64,000 nt of DNA from Phycisphaerae bacterium. GTDB lineage: Bacteria; Planctomycetota; Phycisphaerae; SM23-33. A program made the position numbers and the translations under genes. Under the pieces are notes generated by a model, which did no database searches, was not told the DNA's origin, and saw only the letters and a program-made list of their open reading frames with translations. Location: the NCBI GenBank assembly GCA_041661865.1, contig JBAZTO010000019.1, positions 252-64,251 of the forward strand, in the 5' to 3' direction. Every line of letters starts with the position of its first letter. The first letter of the stretch is position 1. This document shows positions 50,201 through 53,200 of the stretch, one piece after another.

Positions 50201-53200
50201 TCGGCTTGCCGGCGTCGATGGTGTTCAACGTGGTCGGGGTGGGCACGGCCTCGTTGGTGTCAAAGAAGTTGAAGGCCTGGTTGGTGATCTGCGTGCCGCT
50301 GGCCAGCCCCGCCAATGGGCGGATCGTGTAGCCCAGGTGCCCCTCGCCATTGTGGAGGTCCTCGTCGTTGACGGGCAGGAAACCAGCCATCGCGTCATCC
50401 GGCGCTTCCATCGTGTCCGGGTCCAGCGACTCAAACAGCCATGTGACCTTCCGTGTGTCAGAGTCCAGGCCCGCCGTGACGCGAACCAGAAGGTTGTTGC
50501 CTTCCGGCCGGAGGTCCACGAGGGTTTCATAGTACTGAAGCCCATCCGGCACATCGACCCAGAAGTCCCCATACAGGTTCACGTCGCCCAACTCGAACGT
50601 CATCAGGTCCAGGTCGGCATCGAAAGTGTCCTCGATCCGCACCACCTGCGCGGGAGCCGTAGCCCCAAGTTCGGGATCGTTCTCGTAGTAGATCGCGTAC
50701 GGCATGGCCGTGTCGGCAACGATGTAATGCCCCACCCCCGCCCCCGCCGGGCCAACCTTGTCGTTCGGGTCAAACGAGGCGACGACGTTGGTTTTCGACT
50801 GCCACAAATCCCACAGATCCTTGACTGTCCACAGGCCCTCTGTGACCCTCACAATCAAGTCCCGAGTCGGATGCCATAGCTTCGCTAATACATCATATTG
50901 CTTCCACCATCTGGTAAGGCTCCATTCGCCGCCGTATCTCAACCGTGCAGCACCCTTAGAGGCGAACTTCAGGGCACCTATTCCCATCAGGGCTACGTTC
51001 GCCAGTCTCTTTACGTTGTCAACAACGGACCCTGTGCCGAGCCTGAGAACATCATGCGGGCTCAAGACCTTCACCACGTCTCTTGCGGTGTCCATCGATC
51101 CCTGGATCACCCAATGTTGCCCACCAAACCGTTCTGATCCGACCTGATGAACGCGGTCTATCCAACCGTCAATCTTGTCCGCTACTTCATACGGTGCAGA
51201 CCACAACCCCAAGGGGTCAACACCGCCAGTTGAAGCGTTTCCGCTATACCGGTACAAGTTGCAGTCCCCTCCTACTATCCCAAGTGGGTCTTCGGAGGTA
51301 AACCGGGCGATATTTGAAGCGTAAACACGTGCGCGCATCAAGGTGAGACCATTGCTCTCGCTCATCACCCCGTATTTGCCAGCGAAATCAAAAGGACTAG
51401 ATACAGCTTCAGTCTTGGCGAGTAACGACCCGAACGGATCGTAGGAGTAAGCGTTGAGTACGTCTGTTCCCATAGATCCGATCAGTTCGCTAACATTGCC
51501 CATTGCTGAGAAGGTGTAGAAGGCCCCGTTTCCTGAGGCATCTACCCTAGAGGTTAGCCCAAGACCATAGCCATAACGAGCGACGAGGTTGCTAGTGCCA
51601 TCGTATTCCGCCACAACCTTGCCCATGCCCCTTGGGTCAGTCAGGTAGTTCGTGGTCGCGCCATCGACCATGGAGGCTACGCGGTTGCCCAAGACGTCGT
51701 AACTGTAGGTCCAGGTGCTTCCGGCCCCGATTACCTGCGCAAGGCGGTTCTCGTCATTGTAGGAATACGTCCAGCCATCCGCGCCGTCGATCCTGGAGAT
51801 GAGGTTCCCATCGACGTCGTAAGAATAGGCAGCCGTGCCGACGGTGGTGTACTGGTTCATGTTGTTGGCGGCGTATTCGGTCGTGACGCCGTTGGCGATG
51901 GTGCGGATGCGGTTTCCGGCGGCGTCATAGACGTATGTGAGATCCTGGTCGGGGGTGGAGGGGTCGGTCGAATCGAGCACAGCATGGGTCAATTGGCCGG
52001 TGGCGTCGTACTGGTAAGTCCACAGGCCGTAGGACGTGCCTTCACTGGTTCGCCGGCCGAGGGAGTCGTAGGTGTAGTCGAAACGGCTGTTGACCGAGCC
52101 ATTCGAGGCGCAGTTGACCAGGTGGAGCAATTGGCCGGCGGCGTCGTACTGGTAGGTTGTGTACGTGCCATTGCCCTTGTCCTCGCGGACCAGGCGTCCG
52201 ACGGCGTCATATGTGTACATGTCGATGGTCGCGCCAGTGCCGTCGGTCAGGCTCGAAAGCCGCCCGGCCGAATCGTAATGGTAGTTCGTGACGAAGCCGT
52301 CGAACGTCGTCATGCTCGCCCGCCGCCCGCCGGCGTCATAGGTGTAGGAGAGCCACTGGCCGCTCGTGTAGGTGATCTTCGTCATGCGGTCGGCGGAGTC
52401 GTACACCATCGCGGTCGTGCCGGTGGCGTCGGTAGCCGTCAGCATGTTGCCGCGGGCATCATAGGTGTAGTCCACGTGCGTGCTGTCGGCGTAGGTCTTG
52501 CGGGTGAGCAGGCCGTCGCCGTTGTAGGCGTAGTCGATGGCTTGGCCGCGGCGATTGGTTGACTCAATCAGGTCGCCCAGCGGATCATAGGCGAAGTGTT
52601 CGGCCGAGCCATTGGGATAGGTGATGGCCGTCATGTCCCCCTGTGAGTCGTAAGTGTAGCGCGTGGTGTTGCCTCGGGCGTCGCGGACGGCCAGCAGGCG
52701 GTTTAGGGTCGGATCGTAGGCCATGCTGACGCAGTTGCCCAGGGAATCGATCTGACTGGTGAGGTTGCCCCGGCCATCATAGCGGTAGGAATAGGTGACG
52801 CCGGAGGGCGCCGACAGGCGGGTGAGGTTGTGGTTGGTGTCGTAGGTAAACCGGGTTATGCGGCCCAACGCGTCATGGGTCTGGGCGACTTGGCCGCTGT
52901 CGTTATAGAACATCGTGGTCGTGGCGCCAGCGGCGTCGGTGACATACAGTCCGTTGGCTGTATCATAGGCGTAGGAGACGGCCTCGGCCCCGCCATCGCG
53001 GTATTCGCGCGTGAGGCGCCCCTGGGCGTCATAGTCGAAGTAATCGTGCGTTCCTCCAGGGTAGGCGATTGAGACAATGGCGTGGGCAGCCGGGCCGCTT
53101 GTGGCCGCGGAATATGTGTACACGGTGGTCCCGTCGGCGCCGGTGACGCTGGTGAGGTGCTCGCCGGAGGCATCATAGGCGTAGGTGGTGGCCCTGCCGG

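Follow-up and report, generated by a model that had tools for sequence, protein, structure and literature searches.

A Low-GC Core-End-Plus-Tip Module, Probably Exchanged by Recombination, in the Internal Variable Slot of a Giant Rhs Gene from a Phycisphaerae Bacterium

A Giant Gene Encodes an Rhs Cocoon between Two Conserved Scaffolds

We analyzed a 64-kb stretch of DNA (64,000 nt of contig JBAZTO010000019.1; hereafter, the window) from a metagenome-assembled genome (MAG) of the Phycisphaerae (Planctomycetota), and specifically a segment of anomalous base composition within its giant open reading frame (ORF). Pfam and NCBIfam matches place the domains of the encoded protein in the order N-terminal repeats, seven CARDB domains, an LVIVD beta-propeller, PPC, DUF6531 and an RHS shell, followed by 140 residues without a match, DUF7619 and two cohesin domains; a dockerin-like stretch at the end of this series was spotted by eye in the translation. 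Comparison with related genes divides the protein into two conserved scaffolds and a variable slot that lies between them (Table 1). Past the 140-residue segment, here termed the tip, 1,193 residues (4386 to 5578) continue in frame and are kept in relatives. The giant protein is probably surface exposed and modular, with an N-terminal scaffold, an internal variable slot and a C-terminal stalk that opens with DUF7619.

The RHS/YD repeats matched PF05593 with an E value of 2.7e-70 over ten stretches and TIGR01643 with an E value of 2.4e-51. In an AlphaFold2 (AF2) model of residues 3400 to 4520, predicted local distance difference test (pLDDT) values were mostly >90 in the cocoon, including its low-GC core end, 70 to 92 in DUF7619 and 25 to 50 in the tip. 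Foldseek searches with this model identified the core of a type VI secretion system (T6SS) Rhs protein (8QJC, E = 7e-51) as well as RhsA (7Q97), a teneurin-like protein (TLP; 9IFO), teneurins and TcB-TcC, and the shell as modeled adopts the closed beta-sheet cocoon fold.

The core sequence terminates in ...GGVDPLGL, with DPLGL at residues 4241 to 4245 (window 51218..51204), and thus displays the PxxxxDPxGL pattern of core ends. The predicted aspartyl autoprotease residues R4204, D4217 and D4241 are all contained in LMRARVYASNIARFTSEDPLGIVGGDCNLYRYSGNASTGGVDPLGL, which shows the motif DPLGI-x19-DPLGL. Their spacing of 13 and 24 residues is the same as that of the catalytic residues R2103/D2116/D2140 in BiTLP, a Bacillus teneurin-like protein (PMC13018210). 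By analogy, cleavage is predicted to occur after L4245.

The C-terminal scaffold begins with DUF7619, a family of CnaA-like intramolecular isopeptide domains found in Gram-negative surface proteins (PMC12617251). Candidates for a Lys-Asp-Asn isopeptide triad, namely the Lys of the DPNDK motif together with downstream Asp and Asn residues, can be seen in its sequence.

Table 1. Features of the giant gene and their positions in the window
Feature	Residues	Window position	Strand	Details
Giant ORF	5,578 aa	47202..63938	minus	Downstream corresponds to falling window coordinates
Conserved N-terminal scaffold	1 to ~3327	53958..63938	minus	Collinear with L004, L005, L007 and L011 (tblastn)
Variable slot	~3328-4385	50784..53957	minus	Here DUF6531, Rhs cocoon and tip
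Rhs/YD cocoon	~3509-4245	51204..53414	minus	Pfam/NCBIfam and AF2; ends at DPLGL
Low-GC3 block	4108-4358	50865..51617	minus	GC 53.3%; two-breakpoint GC3 fit
RHS repeat-associated core domain (TIGR03696)	4166-4245	51204..51443	minus	58.9 bits, cut-off 32.5
Predicted aspartyl autoprotease residues	R4204, D4217, D4241	51327-51329, 51288-51290, 51216-51218	minus
Orphan post-cleavage tip	4246-4385	50784..51203	minus	140 aa, ~16 kDa; helical (predicted), Trp-rich
Common homology breakpoint		50771..50795	minus	Codons for (A)SFDPNDK
DUF7619, first domain of the C-terminal scaffold		50379..50783	minus	PF24595, 54.3 bits, cut-off 27
Conserved C-terminal scaffold	4386-5578	47205..50783	minus	tblastn/DNA comparison with relatives

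A Low-GC Block Spans the End of the Cocoon and the Start of the Tip

The original prediction, made from the sequence of the window, had described a cassette of about 50% GC at positions 50781-51650, embedded in a gene of 65-70% GC. Its location and anomaly were confirmed, with a GC content of 53.6% over this interval, 62.9% for the whole gene and 60-68% for the flanks, while the contrast had been somewhat overstated. We defined the edges of the anomalous block by a two-breakpoint maximum-likelihood fit on the GC content of third codon positions (GC3). The composition is not uniform, as the original prediction required: GC3 is 0.562 within the block versus 0.839 outside it (log-likelihood ratio [LLR], 40.8). 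The GC contents of the first and second codon positions are nearly unchanged in the block, and the anomaly is thus carried by the third positions. Codon choice is shifted correspondingly, with AGA at 29% in the block versus 2% in the rest of the gene, GTA at 33% versus 6% and GCT at 30% versus 9%.

Compared with the remainder of the gene (GC3 of 0.80), the block deviates with a z score of −9.5. In 100-codon windows along the giant gene, GC3 has a mean of 0.79 and an SD of 0.076, and values of 0.50-0.67 are reached only at about residues 4076 to 4325; the next-lowest, nonoverlapping 251-codon window has a GC3 of 0.697. The low GC content of the block is also unmatched elsewhere in the 64 kb: of all 753-nt windows, only 0.08% are equally low in GC, all of them are located here and the minimum is at 50771. 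Because GC3 is 0.83-0.91 in those housekeeping genes of the window that have Pfam support, the block is atypical for the genome and not merely for the giant gene.

Of the codons in the block, 138 encode the end of the cocoon and the remaining 113 the beginning of the tip; the block hence includes the conserved end of the RHS core, as had been proposed. Also in line with the original prediction, high-GC sequence resumes downstream in frame, with GC3 values of 0.79-0.91 from about residue 4351 to 5150.

Related Giant Genes Carry Different Cassettes in the Slot

Homologs retrieved from the protein library were all ≤900 aa in length, and giant orthologs, which are fragmentary there, were seen through contig-level look-ups. 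The gene at locus L011 (GC 60%) is collinear with residues 991 to 3649, 3765 to 4246 and 4384 to 5060 of the giant protein, with 46-71% identity. Both scaffolds and the Rhs shell are kept in this gene, and nothing in it corresponds to residues 4247 to 4383. The tip of L011 is instead a glycine-zipper-rich segment of ~170 residues that is unrelated to the tip in the window. The expectation that orthologous giant genes would differ in precisely this segment is borne out by L011, which shares the scaffold and the shell and lacks a counterpart of the tip.

Other relatives have no Rhs module in the slot. The nearest relative, L006, is 75% identical in amino acid sequence over residues 4378 to 5578, and its slot contains a lipase domain (PF00151, E = 8e-23) directly before RSRDPNDK. 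This lipase/alpha-beta-hydrolase cassette (L006:450-1100, Ga0315294_10030946) carries a GHSLG motif and occupies the place where the window has Rhs plus tip. L004 and L007 have both scaffolds, and their slots are filled with CarboxypepD_reg repeats plus unknown domains. In the corresponding regions (L004:8576-10493 and L007:6889-10001), we noted 4 to ~10 CarboxypepD_reg repeats and an unrelated domain of ~275 residues that has no Pfam family; both slots close with an acidic linker directly before SFDPNDK. In L005, the equivalent of residue 3327 is joined straight to the equivalent of residue 4381, and the slot is empty.

The downstream boundary of the slot is shared by these relatives. DNA homology to the window starts at 50795 in L004, 50776 in L005, 50771 in L006 and 50795 in L007. 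Thus, all four starts fall within 25 bp, at the start of DUF7619, and the DNA identity beyond them is 66-81%. This result, too, favors the original prediction, which had named a comparison with orthologous giant genes as a check. Across the C-terminal scaffold, the amino acid identity is ~75% to L006 throughout and 53-81% to L004, L005, L007 and L011.

The cassettes of the relatives also differ in composition from the sequence that follows them. Specifically, the slot cassette of L006 has GC3 values of 0.50-0.66 versus 0.78-0.92 downstream, and that of L007 has values of 0.46-0.63 versus about 0.8; in L004, GC is 56-57% directly upstream of the junction between the slot and DUF7619. As judged from these sequence comparisons, the unit of exchange extends beyond the low-GC3 block, with the whole DUF6531-Rhs-tip region (residues ~3328 to 4385) being located in the variable slot.

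Rhs-Tip-DUF7619 Genes Have Hypervariable Tips and, in Some Cases, a Low-GC3 Block

The succession of an Rhs core, 94-216 unrelated residues and DUF7619 was also found in cyanobacteria, planctomycetes and other groups, and DUF7619 forms the start of a conserved stalk behind unrelated "heads" in many proteins. The segment after the core is hypervariable: in ~15 Rhs-tip-DUF7619 homologs, the tips (~94-216 aa) are mutually different, the exceptions being two small sets with a common motif (P0010/P0029 and P0037/P0126). Several of these tips are glycine-zipper or transmembrane (TM)-like, and a comparison of nine of them with Pfam toxin families gave only a sub-threshold glycine-zipper match. The tips of P0010 and P0029, which come from unrelated sources, have in common a Cys-flanked C-L-x-E-H-E-x-x-H-x-x-x-C motif (C..HExxH..C) that is not in Pfam and that, by its sequence, may represent a mini zinc-metallopeptidase payload.

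Two of the Rhs-tip-DUF7619 genes display a block like that of the window. In L012 (GC 63%), a low-GC3 block covers residues 268 to 572, with a GC3 of 0.54 versus 0.83 and an LLR of 39.4. It opens at ...GLGNLVE/EYDD, within 3 codons of the position homologous to ...GMGKV/VAEYDG of the window (slashes mark the block starts), and the two blocks begin 133 (L012) and 137 (window) residues ahead of the cleavage site. The low-GC3 block of L010 (GC 50%) has a GC3 of 0.26 versus 0.52. In both genes (L012:1604-3952 and L010:739-3255), the block runs from the end of the core to the start of DUF7619, and the tip of L012 is unrelated to that of the window. In L002, L008 and L009, which are likewise Rhs-tip-DUF7619 genes, there is no low-GC3 block at the core-end/tip position, which rules out a GC3 dip as a universal trait of this architecture. 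At L002, no gene is recorded across 6 kb upstream of the match.

The Tip Has No Recognized Family or Fold

As the original prediction had stated, the 140 residues between DPLGL and SFDPNDK (4246 to 4385) belong to no family in Pfam or NCBIfam scans. An exhaustive phmmer search of 1.84 billion (1.84e9) representative proteins yielded two matches only, neither of which is a real homolog; both were rejected as spurious, their scores being the sum of matches of a 19-residue piece to Kelch-like TEKFNGSxW..LNTAR repeats. The tip also had no match among PDB sequences. A single-sequence AF2 prediction of the tip was all helical, with a pLDDT of 52, and Foldseek searches with this low-confidence model retrieved generic helical bundles only, at E values above 0.4. 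The size of the tip, ~16 kDa, is close to that of the encapsulated C-terminal domains (CTDs) of bacterial TLPs, which are ~15 kDa (PMC13018210).

The original prediction had singled out the tip as a toxin or cargo candidate. The searches made gave no positive evidence for this role, family, fold and immunity gene all being lacking. A toxin function of the tip is therefore unsupported, its toxicity is speculative and the lack of an adjacent immunity gene speaks against an antibacterial toxin of the self-targeting type.

Probable Exchange of the Core-End-Plus-Tip Module by Recombination

Taken as a whole, the data are best explained by the exchange of a core-end-plus-tip module by recombination, within the variable slot of a conserved scaffold; we put the probability of this explanation at roughly 0.68. 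Composition and relatives agree with the proposal of the original prediction that an exchanged module lies behind the Rhs shell and ahead of a native C-terminal region, which is conserved in relatives. The core-end and tip of a lower-GC Rhs gene would have replaced the resident module through homologous recombination, with a first crossover in the conserved core, just past the DPxGxGxVVAEYD motif, and a second in the conserved start of DUF7619 (SFDPNDK) or close to it, such that the long reading frame was preserved. The conserved core and the DUF7619 start would thereby act as recombination handles between Rhs-tip-DUF7619 genes. The import would be fairly recent, and the GC3 of the block suggests a donor genome of roughly 50% GC. 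In contrast, the toxin displacement mechanism invoked by the original prediction finds no counterpart here. The window contains no orphan core/tip remnant or immunity gene. The event looks like an in-frame, double-crossover replacement and not like a classical C-terminal displacement.

By comparison with Rhs, Tc and teneurin-like proteins, the ~16-kDa tip would be enclosed as the cocoon closes, and the aspartyl protease would cut after L4245, as in Rhs effectors, TcC and bacterial TLPs. The tip would then be the exchangeable payload or membrane-active element. Unlike canonical Rhs toxins, however, the cut tip would stay tethered to ~1,190 residues of external stalk.

Several findings weigh against exchange of the module. 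The 3′ edge of the block (50865) lies ~70-95 bp short of the shared homology breakpoint and falls in nonconserved sequence, which leaves the position of the downstream crossover imprecise. There is also no step in protein identity at the GC boundary: for 24 homologs, the ratio of identities across residue 4108 is 0.86, versus 0.89 among the homologs themselves, and these resemble the low-GC part of the core neither more nor less than they resemble the upstream shell. Thus, the case for a foreign origin rests on composition and comparative anatomy, with no donor. None of the collections searched contained a donor or close relative of the block; a contig scan of genomes with residues 3700 to 4700 gave one distant Rhs protein of 24% identity and no orthologs, and a scan of metagenome contigs with the protein sequence of the block gave no relatives. 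Within the 64-kb window, blastn and tblastn searches with the block detected no orphan core-end/tip cassettes or paralogous core ends, and no immunity-like gene was present, including directly downstream of the giant ORF. Genes for PAAR/VgrG/T6SS, TcA/TcB or other secretion components were absent among the window ORFs scanned. No toxin family or fold was recognized for the tip in Pfam, NCBIfam, the PDB or the representative library, or with the low-confidence model. Moreover, because ~1,190 residues follow the tip, the chain of an encapsulated tip must exit the cocoon, and such an exit is, to our knowledge, known for metazoan teneurins and not for bacterial Rhs proteins. Finally, the contig stems from a MAG assembly.

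The first alternative concerns function. The 140-residue segment could be a filler or tether that is similar to the internal linker of metazoan teneurins, has no payload role and varies simply as it is unconstrained. We consider this possible, if rather doubtful. The lack of a family, fold or immunity gene for the segment, the ~1,190 residues that follow it, its pLDDT of 25-50 in the AF2 model and the evidence from L005 that a related scaffold works without any Rhs module are all consistent with a tether. Nevertheless, the autoprotease set is wholly intact, whereas the motif has been lost in teneurins, in which the chain is a mere linker (PMC13018210). The tip sizes of ~94-216 aa match those of encapsulated CTDs, and several of the homologous tips are glycine-zipper/TM-like, as is the membrane-permeabilizing CTD of BiTLP, and two carry the C..HExxH..C motif. 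A tether would, furthermore, account for function only and leave the codon-usage island unexplained.

The second alternative is an in situ effect with no import, in which the zone of core end plus tip is kept, or allowed to become, AT-richer than its surroundings. One possible cause is selection for rare codons that slow translation as the cocoon closes on the tip; alternatively, as a segment without homologous partners, the zone could escape GC-biased gene conversion and decay toward AT. Such an effect would fit the repeated finding of the block, which three independent genes have in the same structural place, with a homologous start residue in two of them, the fact that all three blocks are lower and never higher in GC than their host genes and the unbroken protein relatedness at the block boundary. 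We nonetheless regard it as improbable. L002, L008 and L009 share the architecture and have no block at this position, and the tips are nonhomologous even where scaffold and shell are shared, as in L011, so that replacement has certainly occurred. In addition, the non-Rhs cassettes of L006 (lipase) and L007 (CarboxypepD_reg) are also low in GC3, which folding of a cocoon cannot cover.

An assembly chimera, in which Rhs reads of a lower-GC organism were joined via k-mers shared in the conserved core, is suggested by the metagenomic source and by the conservation of the Rhs core end across taxa, but is very improbable, since it would need two switches within ~750 bp, the second of them in unique orphan sequence and not in a shared region, since the frame is intact over both junctions and since the same pattern is present in the independent assemblies of L012 and L010.

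Comparison with Polymorphic Toxins, Teneurins and Other Modular Proteins

In classical rhs genes, a GC-rich core contrasts with AT-rich, exchangeable core extensions. The giant protein has in common with Rhs/YD polymorphic toxins (E. coli/Salmonella rhs, T6SS Rhs effectors and TcC) the YD-repeat cocoon with its DUF6531 plug, the TIGR03696 core that ends in DPxGL and bears an R-D-D autoprotease, a hypervariable tip of ~15 kDa directly after the cleavage site and the lower GC of the tip and part of the core than of the shell. However, the variable toxin domain of these proteins is at the extreme C terminus, whereas here the variable tip is internal, with 1,193 residues after it. The window also differs in having no immunity gene, orphan cassettes or PAAR/VgrG/T6SS or TcA/TcB partner, and an exchange in the giant gene must have been a frame-preserving double crossover.

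Bacterial TLPs (PMC13018210) and metazoan teneurins have the same large, adhesin-type N terminus with a beta-propeller, followed by a YD shell. Bacterial TLPs also show the identical R-13-D-24-D spacing and a polymorphic CTD of ~15 kDa that is often hydrophobic, and in metazoan teneurins the chain likewise continues into domains past the shell. In contrast to both, no NHL domain or FN-plug was detected in the giant protein by Pfam, and the contiguous FN-plug, NHL propeller and YD-shell superfold of TLPs is not found: the LVIVD/Beta_propel match is at residues ~1990 to 2360, >900 residues upstream of the shell, with PPC and CARDB between them and DUF6531 just before the shell. Furthermore, the CTD of bacterial TLPs is terminal, with an immunity gene located downstream, whereas the tip of the giant protein is internal, and metazoan teneurins have lost the protease motif that is intact in the giant protein.

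In MARTX toxins, internal effector domains that are shuffled by recombination lie between repeat regions that are conserved. The likeness of the giant gene to them is one of layout only, with conserved N- and C-terminal regions around internal content that differs between relatives; the RTX repeats and cysteine protease domain of MARTX toxins were not found anywhere in the giant protein by Pfam, and there is no evidence of translocation. The domain that starts with SFDPNDK matches PF24595 and thereby resembles the DUF7619/CLIPPER-type isopeptide stalk domains of fibrillar adhesins (PMC12617251). DUF7619 is, however, part of the flank and lies outside the low-GC block.

Exchange of Rhs tips, with its GC anomaly, is already known, and is textbook knowledge for terminal toxins paired with immunity genes. 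What is new is a variable tip that is internal, tethered to an isopeptide/cohesin stalk and located in a slot that is occupied by non-Rhs cassettes in relatives. The signature of exchange, in composition and putative recombination, is found here in the middle of a protein of 5,578 residues, between two conserved scaffolds and without an immunity gene. It provides a concrete example of breakpoints for the exchange of domain cassettes, namely the DPxGxGxVVAEYD motif of the core and SFDPNDK, with which DUF7619 starts. If the tip is truly encapsulated and cleaved, the questions arise of how the chain leaves a bacterial Rhs cocoon, what purpose the payload has and whether giant planctomycetal genes act as head-swapping platforms. 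We tentatively raise, as a notion that is less likely than not, that Phycisphaerae and related bacteria have a family of giant surface proteins that serve as modular scaffolds for display or delivery, with an internal slot whose effectors can be exchanged horizontally. Were this true, the slot, flanked by the conserved N-terminal scaffold and C-terminal stalk, could accommodate a lipase, an Rhs cocoon whose encapsulated tips are swappable, or other domains, and would represent an internal-cassette counterpart of polymorphic toxins that has no adjacent immunity genes and whose cleaved payload is tethered to an isopeptide/cohesin stalk.

Gene Neighborhood and Additional Features of the Window

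The next gene after the giant ORF is a convergent methyltransferase gene (46161-46817, plus strand), which neighbors genes for a Kdo-type kinase and a radical SAM protein. The radical-SAM/HHH gene (window 43683-45029, minus strand) has a GC3 of 0.67 and a local GC of 52-55% at 44600-45200, and represents another, less pronounced patch of low GC on the downstream side of the giant gene. The scan of ORFs covered most of the window and gave housekeeping genes, apart from a single distant DDE transposase. This DDE_3 transposase ORF (683-2011, plus strand) has a GC3 of 0.63, below that of its neighbors, and is 45 kb from the block; no other mobile-element gene was seen in the window. No flanking repeats around the block were present in the window. 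Scans of the region with Rfam and for promoters/terminators and repeats yielded either nothing or chance-level matches.

Weaker GC3 dips, of 0.61-0.66 per 100 codons, occur in the giant gene at residues ~351-400, 2501-2550, 3126-3175 and 5226-5275 (window 62740-62890, 56290-56440, 54410-54560 and 48110-48260, respectively); a dip at residues ~3100-3225 adjoins the 5′ boundary of the slot on its upstream side. On the plus strand, antisense ORFs are found at 50007-50879 and 50758-51147. The GTG start of the giant ORF is 62 nt from the end of the window (63877-64000), and no obvious signal peptide is evident there (VSPPLLQAGYYRL...). The N-terminal scaffold consists of recently duplicated units with a periodicity of ~55 aa. 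In the 5′ repeat region of the gene, window positions 60892-62251 and 62434-63793 form a 1.36-kb direct duplication with 82% nucleotide identity, which is surrounded by many more repeats of 67-75% identity.

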